From: Proteobacteria bacterium UBA1148
GTDB taxonomy: Bacteria > Pseudomonadota > Gammaproteobacteria > Steroidobacterales > Rariloculaceae
Assembly (NCBI GenBank): GCA_002311835.1
Contig: DBZY01000049.1
Coordinates: forward strand, 49,964-113,963
Length of the DNA stretch: 64,000 nucleotides
Direction: 5' to 3'
Below, in pieces: positions 19,996 to 37,664 of the stretch. Within the stretch, counting starts at the first letter, position 1; each line of letters opens with the position of its first letter. Below the pieces are notes generated by a model, which worked only from the letters and a program-made list of their open reading frames with translations, ran no database searches and was not told where the DNA came from. Made by a program: the position numbers and the translations under genes.

Positions 19996-20012
19996 ATACG
20001 CGTGCCCCACTC

Positions 20013-21461
20013 ATGACAGCATTTCTCGGGACGAGAGAGAGTCTACGGCCATCTGCCGACAAGCTCTTTGTAGACATTGCGGAATACGTACTGGCGCGAG
20101 AACCGGGGAGCGCTGAAGCCCGAACCACCGCCTTTCACTGTCTGCTCGACACGCTGGGTTGCGGCATCCTCGCACTCAACTATCCCGCTTGTCGGAGCGT
20201 ACTCGGTCCCCTCGTTCCTGGTGCGGATTTCGCTGGAGGTGCGAGAGTTCCGGGTACAGCGTTCAAGCTCGACCCAGTAACGGCAGCTTTCAATATTGGA
20301 GCCATGATTCGCTGGCTCGACTTCAATGACACGTGGCTTGCAGCCGAATGGGGACATCCGTCCGACAACCTTGGCGGCATCCTTGCAGTCGCGGACTATC
20401 TCGATCGTCAGGAAGAAGAACCGGCACTAGCTGTCGGCGACGTCCTTACCGCCATGATCCAAGCGCACGAGATCCAGGGTGTACTAGCGCTCAACCATGC
20501 TTTCAATCGTGTCGGTCTGGACCACGTTCTGCTCGTTCGGATTGCAACCACGGCCGTCGTTACGCGCATGCTCGGCGGCACTCGCGAGCAGATCACCGAC
20601 GCTGTCTCAAACGCGTGGATTGACGGCGGCGCACTCAGAACCTATCGCCACGCTCCGAATACGGGATCGCGAAAAAGCTGGGCCGCAGGCGACGCGACAA
20701 GCCGCGGCGTCCGCCTCGCTTTGATGGTGCTACGCGGCGAAATGGGTTACCCCTCTGCATTGTCCGCTCAGACGTGGGGATTTCAGGACGTGTTGTTTGA
20801 CGGGACAGCGATCGAGCTCGAGCGACCACTCGGCTCCTACGTCATGGAAAATATACTGTTCAAGCTATCTTTCCCAGCCGAGTTCCATGCACAGACAGCT
20901 GTTGAAGCCGCGATGACCCTTCATCCCGAAGTATCGGACCGACTCGACGCTATTGCCGAAATCGAAATCGAGACGCAGGAGGCTGGAGTGCGCATCATCG
21001 ATAAATCAGGACCTCTCGCAAATCCAGCAGATCGCGATCATTGCATTCAATACATGGTAGCGGTGCCGCTGATATTCGGCCGGCTCACGGCCGATGACTA
21101 CGAGGAAGATATAGCGCAAGATCCCCGTATCGATGCACTGCGCGAGAAGATGATTGTGCGAGAGAACCGACAGTTCAGTGCCGACTATCTCGACCCCGAC
21201 AAACGCGCGATCGGCAACGCAATAACGATCAGGTTCGAAGATGGCACGTCGACAGACCGTGTCGCCGTCGATTATCCGATCGGTCATCAGCGGCGGCGTG
21301 CGGAGGGTATCCCCGTACTGCGAGAAAAGTTTGAACGAAATCTTCGCAGTTACTACGGCGGCGATCAGACTGACACGATTCTAGCGGCATGTTCCGATCT
21401 TTCCGGATTGCAGGAAATGAGTTTCTGTAACTTTATGGACTTGTGGGTAACAGTCGAATGA
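20013..21461 (+). CDS. prpD: 2-methylcitrate dehydratase (MmgE/PrpD family)
   Basis: 482 aa from the ATG at 20013. It contains [41 protein letters not shown] and [11 protein letters not shown], which match the PrpD pattern. The longer ORF-track N-terminus runs through non-coding-looking sequence. Confidence 0.88.
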
Positions 21462-22135
21462 TAGCGGAACTTCACAAACACCCGACGACGATTGCTTCGC
21501 GACTCACGGAGGAGTTAACGGACGCAATCGTTACAGGCGAGATCGCCGCCGGCGAGAAGATTAGCGAGCCGAACCTAGCTAACCGTTACGATGTCAGTCG
21601 TGGACCACTTCGTGAAGCCATCCGACGCCTCGAAGGACGCGGCCTCGTAAGACATGTGCCTCACGCCGGGGTCCGCGTCGTGACACTCGAACTCGACGAA
21701 GTTGTCGAGCTTTATGCAATTCGAGAAGCCCTAGAAGGTATGGCCGCCAGGCTTGCGGCCGATCACATGAGTGACACGGAGATCGAAGCTGTTCGCGAAC
21801 TACTCGATGAGCATGAGGTGGCGGTCCAGAAAAGCGAAGGCCGCGAGTACTTCCAGCAGGAGGGCGATCTGGATTTCCACTACCGAATAGTGATGGCGAG
21901 CGGCAATCAAAAGCTTATAGCGCTTCTCTGTGGTGAGCTTTATCACCTCGTGAGAATGCATCGCTACCGATCGAGCCGCACGGCGTCCCGACCTCAGCGG
22001 GCTCTGACCGAGCATCGTCGTATTCTCGACGCTGTTGCCGAACGCGACGGAGAACTTGCCGAACTCCTCATGCGCCGCCATCTTGGTGGAGCGCGCCAGA
22101 GTATCGCGACGCAACTGGAGAAGCCGAATGACTGA
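21458..22135 (+). CDS. GntR-family transcriptional regulator with FCD ligand domain (probable propionate/2-methylcitrate regulator)
   Basis: The N-terminal winged helix-turn-helix ([53 protein letters not shown]) is followed by an FCD-type helical C-terminus with H residues (..DLDFHYRIV.., ..EHRRILDAV..). An ATGA overlap joins it to prpD. Confidence 0.85.
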
Positions 22136-23015
22136 ACGGTCTCGTCAGACTCTCCAGGACGCTCTCAAGGCTCAAACGCCCCTGCAGATCGCAGGCGCCA
22201 TCAATGCGTACTCTGCCTTGCTCGCGGAACGCGCTGGATTCCGAGCGATTTATCTTTCTGGCGCAGGAGTCGCCAACGCCTCATTCGGTATGCCCGATTT
22301 GGCGATGACCACACTTAACGACGTCCTAGAAGATACTCGCCGAATCACTGGCGTTACCCGTTTGCCGTTACTCGTTGACGCGGATACGGGCTGGGGCACG
22401 GCATTCAATATCGCCCGTACGACTCGCGAGCTCATCAGAGCAGGTGCCGCGGGTATGCATATCGAAGATCAAGAGCAGGCGAAGCGCTGTGGGCATCGTC
22501 CCAACAAGGAAACGGTATCGACTGAAGAGATGTGTGATCGCATCAGAGCGGCTGTCGATGCCCGGATAGATGATCAATTCGTCGTCATGGCGCGCACTGA
22601 TGCGTTCGCCCATGAGGGTGAGGAAGCTTCCCTAGATCGCGTGTGCGCCTATATCGAAGCCGGCGCAGACATGATCTTTGCGGAGGCTCTGTACACACTC
22701 GACGACTACCGAGAGTTCACCAGCACGATCAACGTACCCGTACTTGCCAACCTTACGGAGTTCGGACTGACGCCGTGTTTCTCGACCAACGAGCTCGCCG
22801 ATGTCGGCGTGGCGATGGCGCTCTATCCGCTTTCGGCATTCCGCGCGATGAGCAAAGCCGCACTTACGATCTACGAGACGATACTCCGCGAAGGAACACA
22901 GAAGCCGGTTCTGGATTCTATGCAGACGCGAGAAGAGCTGTATGAGGTACTCGGCTATCACGACTACGAACGAAAGCTCGACGAACTTTTCGCAGCGCGT
23001 GAGAAGAAAGAATGA
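22128..23015 (+). CDS. prpB: Methylisocitrate lyase
   Basis: It contains [30 protein letters not shown], the active-site loop EDQ...KRCGHRPNK, and ARTDA. An ATGACTGA overlap joins it to the regulator gene. Confidence 0.9.
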
Positions 23016-24142
23016 ACAGTAAAAAGACCGACCAGGCCAGTCTGCGTGGCGTGTCTGCCGGCGAGACGGCCATCGCAACCGTTGGAAAAGAAGGCCACGG
23101 GCTCACCTACCGAGGTTACGACATCCTAGAGTTGTCCGATTCTGCAACGTTTGAGGAGGTAGCGTGGTTACTGCTGTACGGCGAGCTGCCCAGCACTGCT
23201 GAGCTGACTGCATACCTGAGTGAGCTGCGATCACTTCGCGAGCTACCGGCTTCGCTCTGTGAAGTTCTCGAGCGGATTCCAGCCGAAACGCACCCGATGG
23301 ACGTGCTACGGACGGGCTGCTCCATGCTCGGCACGCTCGAGCCCGAGCGCGATTTCTCGCAGCAGCTCGATTCGGCCAATCGGCTGATCGCGACATTTCC
23401 CGGCATGCTCCTGTATTGGCATCACTTCGCAACGAATGGCGCACAAATCGCAACTCAGTCGAACGAGGAAACGCTGGCGGGACATTTCCTGCATCTGCTA
23501 CATGGCGAGGTGCCCAGCGAACTGCATCGTCGCGCGATGGACGTGTCATTAATTCTTTATGCGGAACACGAGTTCAACGCCTCTACGTTCACGGCCAGAG
23601 TATGCGCGGCAACGCTCTCTGATCTTCACTCGGCCGTAACGGGCGCTATCGGGACCTTGCGTGGACCGCTGCACGGTGGCGCGAATGAGGCTGCGATGGA
23701 ATTGATCGAACAGTTCGACTCGGCGGGCGCTGCTCGCGTCGGCGTCAAGGAGATGCTCGAGCGAAAAGCCAAGATTATGGGATTCGGCCACGCGGTTTAT
23801 AAAGAATCCGACCCGCGCAATCAGGTTATCAAGGCATGGTCGCAGAAGCTGGCCGAGGATGCCGGCGACACCGTGCTCTACCCTGTGTCAGAAGCCATCG
23901 ACACGGTGATGTGGGAGGAGAAACGCCTTTTCCCGAATCTCGACTTTTATAGCGCGTCGGCCTACCACTTCATGGGCATTCCGACCTATCTCTTTACACC
24001 CATTTTCGTGTGTTCCCGGATAATTGGCTGGGCAACGCACATCATGGAGCAGCGCGCGAACAACAAGCTGATCCGACCCGCCGCAGACTACACGGGTCCC
24101 GAGACGAGACCATACGTCGCGATGGCAGAGCGAGCTTCATGA
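23012..24142 (+). CDS. prpC: 2-methylcitrate synthase
   Basis: 376 aa of the short (type I-like) citrate synthase family. It contains [43 protein letters not shown] and DFYSA. An ATGA overlap joins it to prpB. Confidence 0.88.
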
Positions 24143-36454: not shown

Positions 36455-36679
36455 CTAATTTTCTTTCTTCGAGCTAGACGAGAGTCCGTAACGACGGCGA
36501 AATTTGTCGACCCGTCCGCCGCTGTCAATAATTTTTTGTTTTCCGGTATAGAAAGGATGACAGGCGGAACAGACTTCTACCTGCAAATCTTTCCTGAGGG
36601 TCGACCGGGTAGTGAATTCGTTGCCACAGCTACAGGCTACCTTGGTCTCGCCATACTCTGGGTGAATATCGGGTTTCAT
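36455..36679 (-). CDS. rpmE: 50S ribosomal protein L31 (Zn-ribbon type A)
   Basis: The protein reads [28 protein letters not shown]...[16 protein letters not shown] with all four Cys present. The ORF-track N-terminal extension is discarded. Confidence 0.92.
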
Positions 36680-36811
36680 GCCGCGGTCTTCTAAAAAAGG
36701 GCGCGTGAGCATACTGCCCTGATCGCTAGAAGACAAGATTAAAAGGAAACGAGGGCAGAGTAGATTATTGAAATAACGCCTAAGATTCAGATCTGAAACA
36801 AAAAAGAACCC

Positions 36812-37024
36812 TTATCCACAGATCCTGTGAATAACTCTGTGGAGGACATCAAACATTTTGTCTGAACTCTGCTACTTGCGGTGGTTTTCATAGATTGGTG
36901 AAAAAACGATCATTATGTATATATTCTTAAAAAACAATAAGTTATACATATAAGATAAATCTTTTTTGGAGAATAAGGTCGCAACGAGATTGTTTATGAG
37001 GCCTGCTCCCAAAGTTGTGTATAA
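36812..37024. promoter_or_regulatory. Cluster of DnaA-box matches flanking an AT-rich tract
   Basis: Five box matches are present: TTATCCACA (36812-36820, +), TTATTCACA (36827-36835, -), TCCTCCACA (36838-36846, -), TTATACATA (36942-36950, +) and TTATACACA (37016-37024, -). Three of them fit TTATNCACA exactly. GATC sites lie at 36790, 36821 and 36908. The region 36900-36965 is very AT-rich. Confidence 0.55.
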
Positions 37025-37046
37025 AAAGCTGCGTGTGCCTCACTAA

Positions 37047-37664
37047 CTATGGTTTTCTGGGGAGGGTCGCTAAGGCGAACTGAATCTCGGATAGCGCACG
37101 ACCTCGGTGACTGACCCGATTTTTAACTTCAGAGGGAAGCTCGGCCGCCGTGGCCTTTAGCTCGGGATCGAAGAATACTGGGTCGTAGCCGAAACCTAAC
37201 TCCCCACGGGGCTTCCGGGTGATAAGACCTGGCCATATACCTGAACCAATTAAAGGAAAGGGATTCTGAGGGGCTACTAAAGCTACTATCACACAATAGA
37301 ATTGTGCGCTCCGTTTTTCGTCCGCCACATCCTCCAAAAGTGCCAGCAACTTCGTAACATTGTCGCAATCCTGGTTATCTGGGCCAGCGAAACGAGCAGA
37401 ATTAATGCCTGGAGCACCTGCGAGTGCGTCCACCACAAGACCAGAATCATCGGCGATTGTTGGGAGGCTAGTTGCTGCGGCCACATGGCGAGCCTTCAGA
37501 AGCGCGTTTTCTACGAAGGTGTTGCTAGTTTCCTCTATTGACTCCACGCCGAACTCGCTTTGGGGTAACACCTCTATACTGGAGGGCGCAAGCAACGCCT
37601 GAATTTCTGAGAGTTTGCCAGAATTCCCACTAGCGAGAACCCAGCGACGCGGAGTGTTGGTCAC
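37047..37664 (-). CDS. rdgB: dITP/XTP pyrophosphatase (RdgB/HAM1 family)
   Basis: It contains [35 protein letters not shown], and the S..K...SHR..A C-terminus. Its start overlaps the rph stop. Confidence 0.88.

Follow-up and report, generated by a model that had tools for sequence, protein, structure and literature searches.

A candidate DARS-type DnaA-regulatory locus between rdgB and rpmE of an uncultured gammaproteobacterium

We find that the non-coding intergenic gap between rdgB and rpmE (positions 36812-37024 of the 64-kb window, the whole stretch of DNA that was analysed) carries a conserved module of DnaA boxes flanked by IHF-type and Fis-type sites. Judged from its sequence, this module is probably a DARS-type locus of the chromosome that regulates DnaA; its nearest counterpart is E. 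coli DARS2, and it would reactivate ADP-DnaA. An earlier sequence-only reading of this DNA had ranked a DARS- or datA-like DnaA-regulatory locus first among three explanations, and we observe that it is the best supported of them. Because many uncultured proteobacteria share the module, its role is probably to control replication timing and not to serve as an origin. The features of the locus and of its flanking genes are as follows.

37047-37664, minus strand: rdgB, Ham1-family dITP/XTP pyrophosphatase (Pfam PF01725, E=5e-59)
37016-37024, minus strand: lone DnaA box IV, TTATACACA, exact, 22 bp past the rdgB stop codon
36932-36944, minus strand: IHF-type site, TAACTTATTGTTT, 1 mismatch to YAANNNNTTGATW, with an A/T-rich flank at about 36912-36965
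36897-36911, minus strand: Fis-like site, GATCGTTTTTTCACC, G-N13-C with an A/T centre, 2 mismatches to GNNYANNNNNTRNNC and 1 bp off the family position
36838-36846, minus strand: DnaA box III, TCCTCCACA, 2 mismatches, 3 bp from box II and in the same orientation, a spacing equal to that of DARS1/DARS2
36826-36834, minus strand: DnaA box II, TTATTCACA, exact, head-to-head with box I at 5 bp, the spacer of E. coli DARS1/DARS2 (PMC6868365)
36812-36820, plus strand: DnaA box I, TTATCCACA, exact, inverted relative to boxes II and III, (near-)invariant in 12 related genomes and in the family consensus
36700-36736, minus strand: predicted rpmE promoter, with -35 TTGTCT (36736-36731), a 17-bp spacer, -10 TATGCT (36713-36708) and the GC-rich discriminator CACGCGCC (36707-36700)
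36455-36679, minus strand: rpmE, ribosomal protein L31 (74 aa, Zn-ribbon form; Pfam PF01197, E=1e-33, from residue 1)

The element is bounded by the 3′ end of rdgB, its upstream neighbour, and rpmE is the gene directly downstream. Both flanking genes had been named from the letters alone, and the domain matches to Ham1/RdgB and L31, each on the minus strand at the coordinates above, agree with those names. The two genes thus share one transcription direction. In public gene calls L31 appears as an 85-aa form, compared with the 74 aa observed here. Scans of the window with Rfam at gathering thresholds and for tRNAs returned no matches, and tblastn searches for Fis, IhfA, IhfB, Dam, SeqA and Hda found none in the window or in any of the loci. 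The genes priA and exbB are also absent from the 64-kb window.

The exact DnaA box TTATNCACA occurs three times in the 64-kb window, and all three copies lie in the rdgB-rpmE gap within a span of 213 bp; the number expected from shuffles for the whole window is 1.6. None of 1000 dinucleotide-preserving shuffles placed three or more exact boxes within 215 bp and 8 placed two, and the clustering proposed by the sequence-only reading therefore stands, with the correction that its second box, placed at 36827-36835, lies one base lower at 36826-36834 (minus strand). The core at 36812-36846 has the layout described there, TTATCCACA-GATCC-TGTGAATAA-CTC-TGTGGAGGA, that is, 9-5-9-3-9. Both near-match boxes that had been pointed out are present as well: TCCTCCACA at 36838-36846 (minus strand, 2 mismatches), which is box III and whose family consensus is nnnTCCACA, and TTATACATA at 36942-36950 (plus strand, 1 mismatch). 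The latter is not conserved as a DnaA box, reverse-strand boxes not being enriched at that offset in the family.

A DARS core is defined by three boxes, with box I opposite to boxes II and III and with spacers of 5 bp and 3 bp (PMC5742627, PMC6868365). The resemblance to this core, proposed by the sequence-only reading, is confirmed when the sequences are set side by side, since DARS1 and DARS2 of MG1655 share these orientations and both spacers with the locus. The MG1655 DARS1 core, TTATCCACT-ATTCC-TGTGGATAA-CCA-TGTGTATTA, is identical in layout to 36812-36846, and the DARS2 core, TTATTCACC-TTTTC-TGTGGATAG-AGT-TGTGAAGAA, has the same orientations and spacers. Mismatches in boxes I, II and III number 0, 0 and 2 here, 1, 0 and 1 in DARS1, and 1, 1 and 1 in DARS2. 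The likeness is one of architecture and not of alignable sequence, since the core region, searched with blastn in 5,426 E. coli genomes, returned matches at chance level only. Altogether, the locus combines a three-box core, an inverted box I and the DARS spacing with a non-coding, non-oriC position and with conservation across species in which the spacers drift.

The same core is found in 12 distant gammaproteobacterial GTDB genomes, including Woeseiaceae and Macondimonas, and in at least 120 metagenome contigs, answering the call of the earlier reading for a check of conservation in relatives. Lentisalinibacter orientalis and Woeseia are culturable organisms that carry it. The composite motif was present at the syntenic site in 12 of 80 rdgB-flank loci and nowhere else in 833 kb. 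An alignment of 13 sequences shows conserved boxes, IHF-type sites and Fis-type sites separated by divergent spacers, and five metagenome contigs of the same species carry 6 SNPs over 381 bp, none of them inside the motifs. The module is followed by different genes on different contigs, with rpmE in 33 cases, priA in 13, exbB in 11 and others too, and one related genome (L069) retains the module without rpmE; the module does not depend on any single neighbour gene. Its orientation relative to the downstream gene is constant in all contexts. We found no DARS core upstream of rpmE or priA in E. coli, Proteus, Pasteurella, A. baumannii, Legionella adelaidensis, Halomonas, N. gonorrhoeae or Aeromonas caviae, and the module is therefore clade-restricted.

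In most of these loci the flank of the core also keeps three further sites at almost constant offsets. Counted from box III, the Fis-type site lies here at -66, between the core and the IHF-type site at -98, and the lone direct box lies at -178. The gap from box III to the IHF-type site is 85 bp, and a further 71 bp separates the IHF-type site from box IV, which is 80 bp upstream start-to-start; this 80-bp distance is kept in 40 of 64 loci. In the related genomes the offsets are -98 to -101 for IHF and -65 to -68 for Fis, and an exact box IV is present at -178 to -181 in 11 of the 12, L069 having only a 1-mismatch box at -187. Among 108 metagenome loci, 54 have an IHF site with at most 1 mismatch at -97 to -100 (background 0.32 per offset), and 36 have an exact Fis site at -65 to -67 (background 0.23 per offset). 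With at most 1 mismatch allowed at the canonical offsets, the same 108 loci yield 54 IHF sites, 76 Fis sites and 54 DnaA boxes, as compared with 0-2, 2-10 and 0-1, respectively, at shifted control offsets (n=105). The family sequence of the Fis site at -66, TGgtcA.aaTTTga.CA, matches the high-affinity Fis consensus. The weak points of the window copy are the 2 mismatches of box III, the 2 mismatches and 1-bp shift of the Fis-like site, and the single mismatch of the IHF-type site.

Several other features of the gap had been listed by the sequence-only reading. The conserved, predicted IHF-type site, together with the sequence flanking it, accounts for the AT-rich block. Also confirmed are the palindrome TTCAGATCTGAA (36786-36797), four GATC sites (36721, 36790, 36821 and 36908) and the inverted repeat formed by TATGTATA at 36914-36921 and TATACATA at 36943-36950; however, neither the palindrome, nor the repeat, nor the GATC of the core spacer is conserved beyond the species. 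We therefore dropped the GATC sites, the palindrome and the repeat as parts of the element, since they are species-specific.

Downstream of the core, we observe a promoter pattern of the form TTGnnn-16 to 18 bp-TAnnnT in 43 of 45 rpmE-linked loci, followed in nearly all by a GC-rich discriminator. With no more than 8 of 12 consensus positions matched, the window copy was missed by a consensus scan. The end of the core lies 75 bp upstream of this conserved promoter. Internal spacings of the module vary by 1-3 bp between loci, as compared with a range of 11-137 bp from the core to the rpmE -35.

This arrangement raises the question of whether the boxes serve transcription. DnaA, together with IHF and Fis, could have a purely transcriptional part here, regulating the rpmE (and rpmE-gltA) promoter without any effect of the boxes on the nucleotide state of DnaA; the boxes would then be the upstream operator or activator region of a ribosomal-protein promoter under growth-rate control. 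We consider this exclusive form unlikely. The position of the core 75 bp ahead of a conserved -35/-10/GC-discriminator promoter favours it, as does the constant orientation towards the downstream gene. Fis sites are common upstream of translation-machinery promoters, and this commonness speaks for it too. Core-to-promoter distances also fall near multiples of ~11 bp (p=0.002 on unique values); however, significance is lost after collapse to 13 clusters (p=0.145), so that the phasing is suggestive and not robust to phylogenetic collapsing. DnaA is a known transcription regulator that prefers paired boxes 2-3 bp apart, and the double-box promoters of polA, purH and nrdA (Stringer et al. 2024, PMC11317965) resemble the locus in having a direct pair, like boxes II/III, 3 bp apart and upstream of a promoter. 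However, the promoter sites of that E. coli DnaA ChIP study are direct double boxes that lack both an inverted third box at 5 bp and a fixed frame of IHF, Fis and extra-box sites (PMC11317965), and among the E. coli sites compared only the DARS1 and DARS2 cores have such an inverted box, datA being without this core as well. The identical module with identical spacing also precedes the unrelated genes priA and exbB and others, and persists without rpmE in L069; its internal geometry is fixed while the promoter distance ranges from 11 to 137 bp; and the rpmE promoters of E. coli, Proteus, Pasteurella and Acinetobacter are without such boxes. A transcription role is nevertheless compatible with DARS function, DARS1 itself lying in the uvrB upstream region, and DnaA control of the rpmE promoter, the second explanation of the sequence-only reading, may coexist with a DARS-type role.

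The remaining readings differ in what they take the boxes to be. A datA-like element, an IHF-dependent box cluster that would restrain initiation by titrating DnaA and/or stimulating DnaA-ATP hydrolysis, is likewise improbable, even though its layout is partly shared. On its predicted sites the locus resembles datA in part, with DnaA boxes around a single IHF site and an exact forward box on its far side. E. coli datA reads exact forward box, 56 bp, IHF, 84 bp, forward then inverted box; the locus reads exact forward box, 71 bp, IHF, 85 bp, forward boxes III and II, inverted box I. The IHF site is oriented alike in the two, and its centre-to-centre distance to the box is ~95-96 bp in both. However, datA lacks a 9-5-9-3-9 core, with no match even at 6 mismatches, and its inverted pair is 3 bp apart. 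Relative to the IHF site, its double box is on the opposite flank, and a conserved site of the Fis consensus is characteristic of DARS2 and has not been described for datA (PMC4245941, PMC5742627). Additionally, datA adjoins tRNA-Gly genes and does the opposite job, ATP hydrolysis. A further reading, very improbable, is that boxes I and II match the DnaA box only incidentally and that their inverted repeat serves rdgB as an intrinsic terminator, or some unrelated dimeric regulator as an operator. A terminator scan does flag 36834-36812 as a 10-pair hairpin followed by a T-rich tail, but the rdgB stop codon lies 200 bp before this hairpin, the 9-mer recurs in boxes III and IV in direct, non-palindromic form, and all four boxes fit the DnaA consensus with the DARS spacing kept in >100 loci. 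The T-tail is missing in relatives, and we rejected the terminator reading on this account. Finally, four DnaA boxes, an IHF-type site, an A/T-rich tract and GATC sites give the region a superficial likeness to a gammaproteobacterial oriC, and it could be conceived as a chromosomal replication origin or a relic of one, which is the least probable reading of all and which the earlier reading had also ranked last. The skew and context tests refute it. GC skew is positive on both sides of the locus at the 20-kb scale and over 12-58 kb of the window, and an origin-type skew inversion at the module was seen in 0 of 34 loci. The A/T tract has no direct 13-mer repeats (36690-37060) that would form a DUE, boxes with at most 2 mismatches number only four, without a dense array of low-affinity sites, and dnaA, dnaN, gidA, mioC, rpmH and parAB are all missing from the 64-kb window (Pfam, 48 ORFs). 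Both flanking genes are transcribed one way, and the module occurs in at least three different gene contexts. We conclude that the region is not an origin, since the GC skew does not switch there, 13-mer repeats are missing, and neither dnaA nor gidA is close by.

Returning to the DARS-type reading, we take E. coli as the model for protein binding at the locus and infer from it which way the nucleotide switch would run. ADP-DnaA would bind the exact boxes I and II head-to-head across the 5-bp spacer, and a third protomer would bind the weaker box III head-to-tail. The head-to-head AAA+ contact would loosen ADP, and apo-DnaA would depart and rebind ATP, raising the pool of initiation-competent DnaA. 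In E. coli DnaA, Gln208 and Leu290 are required for DARS to work. The IHF-type site, the Fis-type site and the lone box may shape or gate this complex; a U-turn by IHF centred near -92 would bring box IV, 82 bp away, beside the box III end of the core.

Experimental work on DARS loci has so far been confined to E. coli, and reviews mention similar sequences in many proteobacteria in no more detail (PMC10380432). The diagnostic DARS core is now seen in deep-branching, mostly uncultured gammaproteobacteria, and what is new here is a different but very rigid arrangement of IHF, Fis and extra-box sites together with new gene contexts. Tentatively, the window may hold one copy of a large class of DnaA-IHF-Fis switches in non-enteric proteobacteria. 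Each such switch would combine, within a rigid frame of ~215 bp, a DARS core with a Fis site (-66), an IHF site (-98) and a lone box (-178), and would be set just upstream of outward-firing promoters (rpmE with its stringent-type GC discriminator, priA, exbB); the switches might couple DnaA recharging to growth-rate-controlled transcription and the resulting negative supercoiling, and E. coli DARS2 might then be a rearranged relative of a more widespread form. This broader proposal is doubtful compared with the assignment of the locus itself. The literature reached holds no description of such a class, and searches linking DARS to rpmE, priA or exbB, whose scope did not extend to the candidate-DARS list of Fujimitsu et al. 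2009, returned nothing relevant. If the module is active, control of the DnaA nucleotide cycle by DNA sites would be widespread and no enterobacterial speciality, the >100 natural variants would reveal which spacings are constrained, and the link to a stringently controlled ribosomal-protein promoter would connect growth rate to the timing of initiation in a way that can be tested. Being short (~230 bp) and having boxes of the E. coli consensus, the fragment is directly suited to existing E. coli assays.

The comparison with the two E. coli DARS loci places the module within the class. DARS1, in the bioD-uvrB intergenic region, shares an exact box II and a degenerate box III with the locus, whereas it faces the other way with respect to its downstream gene. 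In the common frame, DARS1 shows no match to the IHF or Fis consensus; it requires no protein activators (PMC11724364) and has a ~50-bp stimulatory flank (PMC5742627). DARS2, in the rppH-mutH intergenic region, is more similar. It has an IHF site in the same orientation and on the box III side, at 74 bp as compared with 85 bp here, one helical turn apart, as well as one or more Fis-consensus sites and an extra exact DnaA box ~180 bp from box III; box I faces the start of the downstream gene, which is rppH in DARS2 and rpmE here. IHF and Fis are the activator pair of E. coli DARS2 (PMC4245941), and the published conservation of DARS2 (core, IBS1-2, FBS2-3) covers, according to the legend of Fig. 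S10 in the supplement to that paper, only 8 close E. coli relatives. Of the DARS2-subtype features, the window has the predicted IHF site on the box III side (1 mismatch) and, with 2 mismatches and a 1-bp shift from the family position, a Fis-like sequence, whereas the order, the distances and the mutH/rppH position of E. coli are not found. In DARS2, IHF is at -87/-71 and the essential Fis site (FBS2-3) at -125, beyond IHF, whereas here Fis at -66 lies inside and IHF at -98; the distal box is inverted at -185 rather than direct at -178; boxes I and II have one mismatch each rather than none; and the neighbours are mutH and rppH rather than rdgB and rpmE. Since the order and distances of core, IHF and Fis differ from those of E. 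coli, we file the locus, on its predicted sites, as DARS-type with a variant regulatory flank and not as a DARS2 orthologue.

The rdgB-rpmE intergenic region (36680-37046) contains all three exact matches to the DnaA-box consensus TTATNCACA found in the 64-kb window, in which 1.6 are expected. The sequence-only reading had picked out this cluster, and in 1,000 dinucleotide-preserving shuffles of the window three exact boxes never fell inside a 215-bp span; chance and terminator explanations were both rejected. Boxes I, II and III form a compact core, and box IV lies distally.

Features of the module and its neighbourhood (window coordinates)
36455-36679, minus strand, L31 (rpmE), Pfam
36707-36700, discriminator of the predicted rpmE promoter, CACGCGCC
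36713-36708, predicted rpmE -10 element, TATGCT
36736-36731, predicted rpmE -35 element, TTGTCT
36812-36820, plus strand, exact DnaA box (box I), TTATCCACA, sequence scan
36826-36834, minus strand, exact DnaA box (box II), TGTGAATAA, sequence scan
36838-36846, minus strand, weaker DnaA box (box III), TCCTCCACA / TGTGGAGGA, sequence scan
36897-36911, predicted Fis-type site, GATCGTTTTTTCACC, 2 mismatches, displaced 1 bp
36932-36944, predicted IHF-type site, TAACTTATTGTTT, 1 mismatch
36942-36950, plus strand, weaker box, TTATACATA, sequence scan
37016-37024, minus strand, exact DnaA box (box IV), sequence scan
37047-37664, minus strand, Ham1/RdgB, Pfam

Box II lies one base from where that reading had placed it; both weaker boxes, a perfect palindrome TTCAGATCTGAA (36786-36797), four GATC sites and an A/T-rich inverted repeat are all present. 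The palindrome is part of ~40 bp of extra DNA (about 36750-36811) between box I and the -35 element, and it is shared by the five same-species metagenome contigs but missing from all more distant relatives. In alignments with relatives and same-species contigs, three features are confined to the species: the insertion, the A/T inverted repeat and the GATC that lies between boxes I and II. Contigs of five metagenomes encode an RNase PH identical to that of the window, and their intergenic regions differ from the window at 6 of 381 positions, sparing all boxes, the IHF-type and Fis-type sites and the promoter hexamers.

Scanning with RdgB, one genome per species, yielded 80 loci with a top identity of 61%; therefore no reference genome is that of a close relative of the organism. 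Of the 80 loci, 12 carry the composite core motif (among them Woeseiaceae (Lentisalinibacter), Candidatus Macondimonas and unclassified Gammaproteobacteria), which occurs nowhere else in the 833 kb scanned. The synteny rph-rdgB(-hemW)-rpmE-gltA-mrcA is retained by exactly these loci, except L069 (Candidatus Macondimonas), and the window encodes RNase PH, citrate synthase and PBP1A near rdgB and rpmE (Pfam). When hemW intervenes, the motif remains 84-114 bp 5′ of the rpmE ATG, which links it to rpmE and not to rdgB. Conservation extends well beyond the core in an alignment of 13 sequences including the window. Counted in bp along the rpmE-sense strand from where box III begins, the conserved upstream parts are, at -178, an exact DnaA box; at -98, the IHF-type site YAANNNNTTGATW, flanked by A/T-rich DNA; and at -66, a site of the form G-N13-C whose centre is A/T. 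The core is followed, at a variable distance, by a promoter (TTGnnn, 17 bp, TAnnnT, GC-rich discriminator) and then rpmE. The box arrangement is conserved 5′ of rpmE in relatives at near-fixed offsets, which vary by at most 1-3 bp over the 13 sequences, L069 excepted, and the spacers are unalignable. L069 (7153-7187) keeps the core, IHF site and Fis-type site 3′ of hemW; its distal box is degenerate and displaced (best match at -187, 1 mismatch), and the module is followed by a putative RHH antitoxin-like ORF and, further off, a putative PIN-like ORF (by eye).

A scan of metagenome contigs with TTATCCACANNNNNTGTGNATAANNNTGTG found at least 120 loci, and we used the 108 with sufficient upstream sequence among the matches listed. 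In these, same-orientation matches to the IHF consensus (≤1 mismatch) are most frequent at -97 to -100 (54/108; background 0.32 per offset), those to the Fis consensus GNNYANNNNNTRNNC (0 mismatch) at -65 to -67 (36/108; background 0.23) and forward DnaA boxes at -175 to -180 (about 51/108). Control offsets shifted by 25-60 bp gave 0-2, 2-10 and 0-1 of 105 listed loci, respectively. Ungapped consensuses of the listed loci are cgTAA.t.aTTGAtt at -98 and TGgtcA.aaTTTga.CA at -67, the latter agreeing with the high-affinity Fis motif, and box IV and the IHF site are 80 bp apart, start to start, in 40 of the 64 loci listed. The DnaA, IHF-type and Fis-type sites form a conserved, rigidly spaced set, and the module is independent of any one neighbouring gene.

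Upstream sites by downstream gene
rpmE, at least 33 loci: all three features in 28 of 29 scorable
priA, at least 13 loci: all three in 8, IHF and Fis in 11
exbB-type, at least 11 loci: IHF and Fis in 9 of 9 scorable, -178 box in none
other genes, 50 scorable loci listed: IHF and Fis in 27, all three in 13
K/R-rich ORF, at least 7 loci: IHF/Fis sites in none; a different family

This last, separate triple-box family (CTGTCCACA-TGG-TTATGCACA-AATTC-TGTGGATAA; L095, L101, L129, L139, L140, L182, L194) has DARS spacing without IHF or Fis sites and lies immediately 5′ of the lysine/arginine-rich ORF. Two other contigs (L116 6534-6570, L119 5366-5402) carry the core pattern on both strands with a 7-bp offset, giving a symmetric four-box III-3-II-5-I-3-I′ arrangement reminiscent of the extra box III′ described beside DARS1. 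The module was not found 5′ of rpmE or priA in E. coli, Proteus, Pasteurella, Acinetobacter baumannii, Legionella adelaidensis, a Halomonas, Neisseria gonorrhoeae or Aeromonas caviae. Comparison sequence included megabase PLSDB records (NZ_CP064203.1, NZ_OL790811.1, NZ_CP119142.1, NZ_AP026896.1, NZ_CP040452.1) labelled as plasmids, of 1.8-4.9 Mb and with housekeeping genes such as priA or rpmE; these records, from A. baumannii, P. mirabilis, N. gonorrhoeae, A. caviae and Halomonas, appear to be chromosomes or large parts of them.

A replication origin, one option of the sequence-only reading, was rejected. GC skew is positive from ~12 to 58 kb of the window, unchanged at 36.8 kb and equal in sign over 20 kb on each side of the module; no origin-type inversion appears at any of 34 loci that carry the module, and the A/T tract has no direct repeats. 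Pfam annotation of 48 ORFs across the window identified the trp and prp operons, ppc, aroKB, spoT, recG, uvrD and cox genes, and no dnaA, dnaN, gidA, rpmH or parAB. GC content is 0.57 at 20001-24000 versus about 0.50 elsewhere; this segment is a methylcitrate-cycle cluster (PrpD, GntR regulator, methylisocitrate lyase, 2-methylcitrate synthase).

Some support exists for a module acting purely in transcriptional control of rpmE, whose promoter it adjoins in constant orientation. The promoter is kept in 43 of 45 rpmE-linked loci listed; a simple promoter scan missed the window copy because only 8 of 12 consensus positions match. Distances from box I to the -35 element (43 loci listed) group near 11, 22, 33, 44, 55, 66, 77 and 88 bp; the best-fitting period, ~11.3 bp, hints at helical phasing of core and promoter (p=0.002 for unique values, p=0.145 after collapsing to 13 clusters). 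Against rpmE control as the sole function, the module occurs in multi-gene contexts, L069 has it without rpmE, and the nearest promoter lies anywhere from 11 to 137 bp from the core. In public gene calls rpmE is annotated at 85 aa, with its start at an ATG inside the conserved -10 hexamer TATGCT (window 36677-36712; same-species contigs L207-L211, 3666-3923); a 74-aa form starting MKPDIHP at 36679 is favoured both by the L31 match in Pfam and by all relatives.

We scanned DARS1 and DARS2 of MG1655 with the same script as the window. The core layout is identical in all three, with the same box orientations and 9-5-9-3-9 spacing, which confirms the likeness proposed in the sequence-only reading.

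DnaA-box cores
DARS1: TTATCCACT - ATTCC - TGTGGATAA - CCA - TGTGTATTA
DARS2: TTATTCACC - TTTTC - TGTGGATAG - AGT - TGTGAAGAA
window: TTATCCACA - GATCC - TGTGAATAA - CTC - TGTGGAGGA

Three boxes with an inverted box I, a 5-bp I-II gap and spacing equal in DARS1 and DARS2 define the DARS core (PMC5742627, PMC6868365). At promoters, DnaA generically binds two direct boxes separated by 2-3 bp (PMC11317965), so what sets this layout apart is the inverted third box at 5 bp. The earlier proposal of a DARS- or datA-like DnaA-regulatory locus is supported, and the window element is probably of DARS type. We hold this no more firmly mainly because datA shares the box-IHF-box geometry: its exact forward box is followed after 56 bp by an IHF site in the window orientation and, after another 84 bp (85 bp in the window), by a forward box with an inverted box 3 bp on. 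A datA-like locus is nonetheless unlikely, as the 9-5-9-3-9 core was not found in datA. There (L212 2734-2927), a degenerate box TTGTAAACA, GAG and an exact box make up a weak-GAG-strong double box, the form that boxes III and II take in the family of the window module.

Judging from E. coli (PMC6868365, PMC4245941, PMC11724364), a DARS-type element would have ADP-DnaA form a head-to-head dimer on its boxes I and II and release ADP, with a third protomer at box III stabilising the dimer. An IHF bend, its centre 82 bp from box IV, would bring that box alongside the core at the box III end, and Fis would share the face of box III at a distance of about six helical turns. Because the predicted rpmE promoter points away from the module and has a stringent-type discriminator, negative supercoiling behind RNA polymerase could, speculatively, favour IHF binding, as reported for DARS2; if so, DnaA recharging would be tied to growth rate.

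DARS2, whose reported conservation covers eight E. coli-proximal species only (PMC4245941), shares its parts with the window module: core, IHF, Fis, distal box and a gene start past box I. Read towards rppH, it has an inverted exact box at -185, a Fis consensus at -125, IHF sites at -87 (orientation as in the window) and -71, and a weak Fis candidate at -43 before the core. However, its essential Fis site is on the opposite side of the IHF site, its distal box is inverted unlike that of the window, and its IHF-to-box III distance is 74 bp versus 85 bp, one helical turn apart. DARS1, which works without protein activators (PMC11724364), matches neither the IHF nor the Fis consensus when read in that frame. 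We therefore file the window locus, on its predicted sites, as one probably of DARS type that carries a variant regulatory flank, and not as an orthologue of DARS1 or DARS2.
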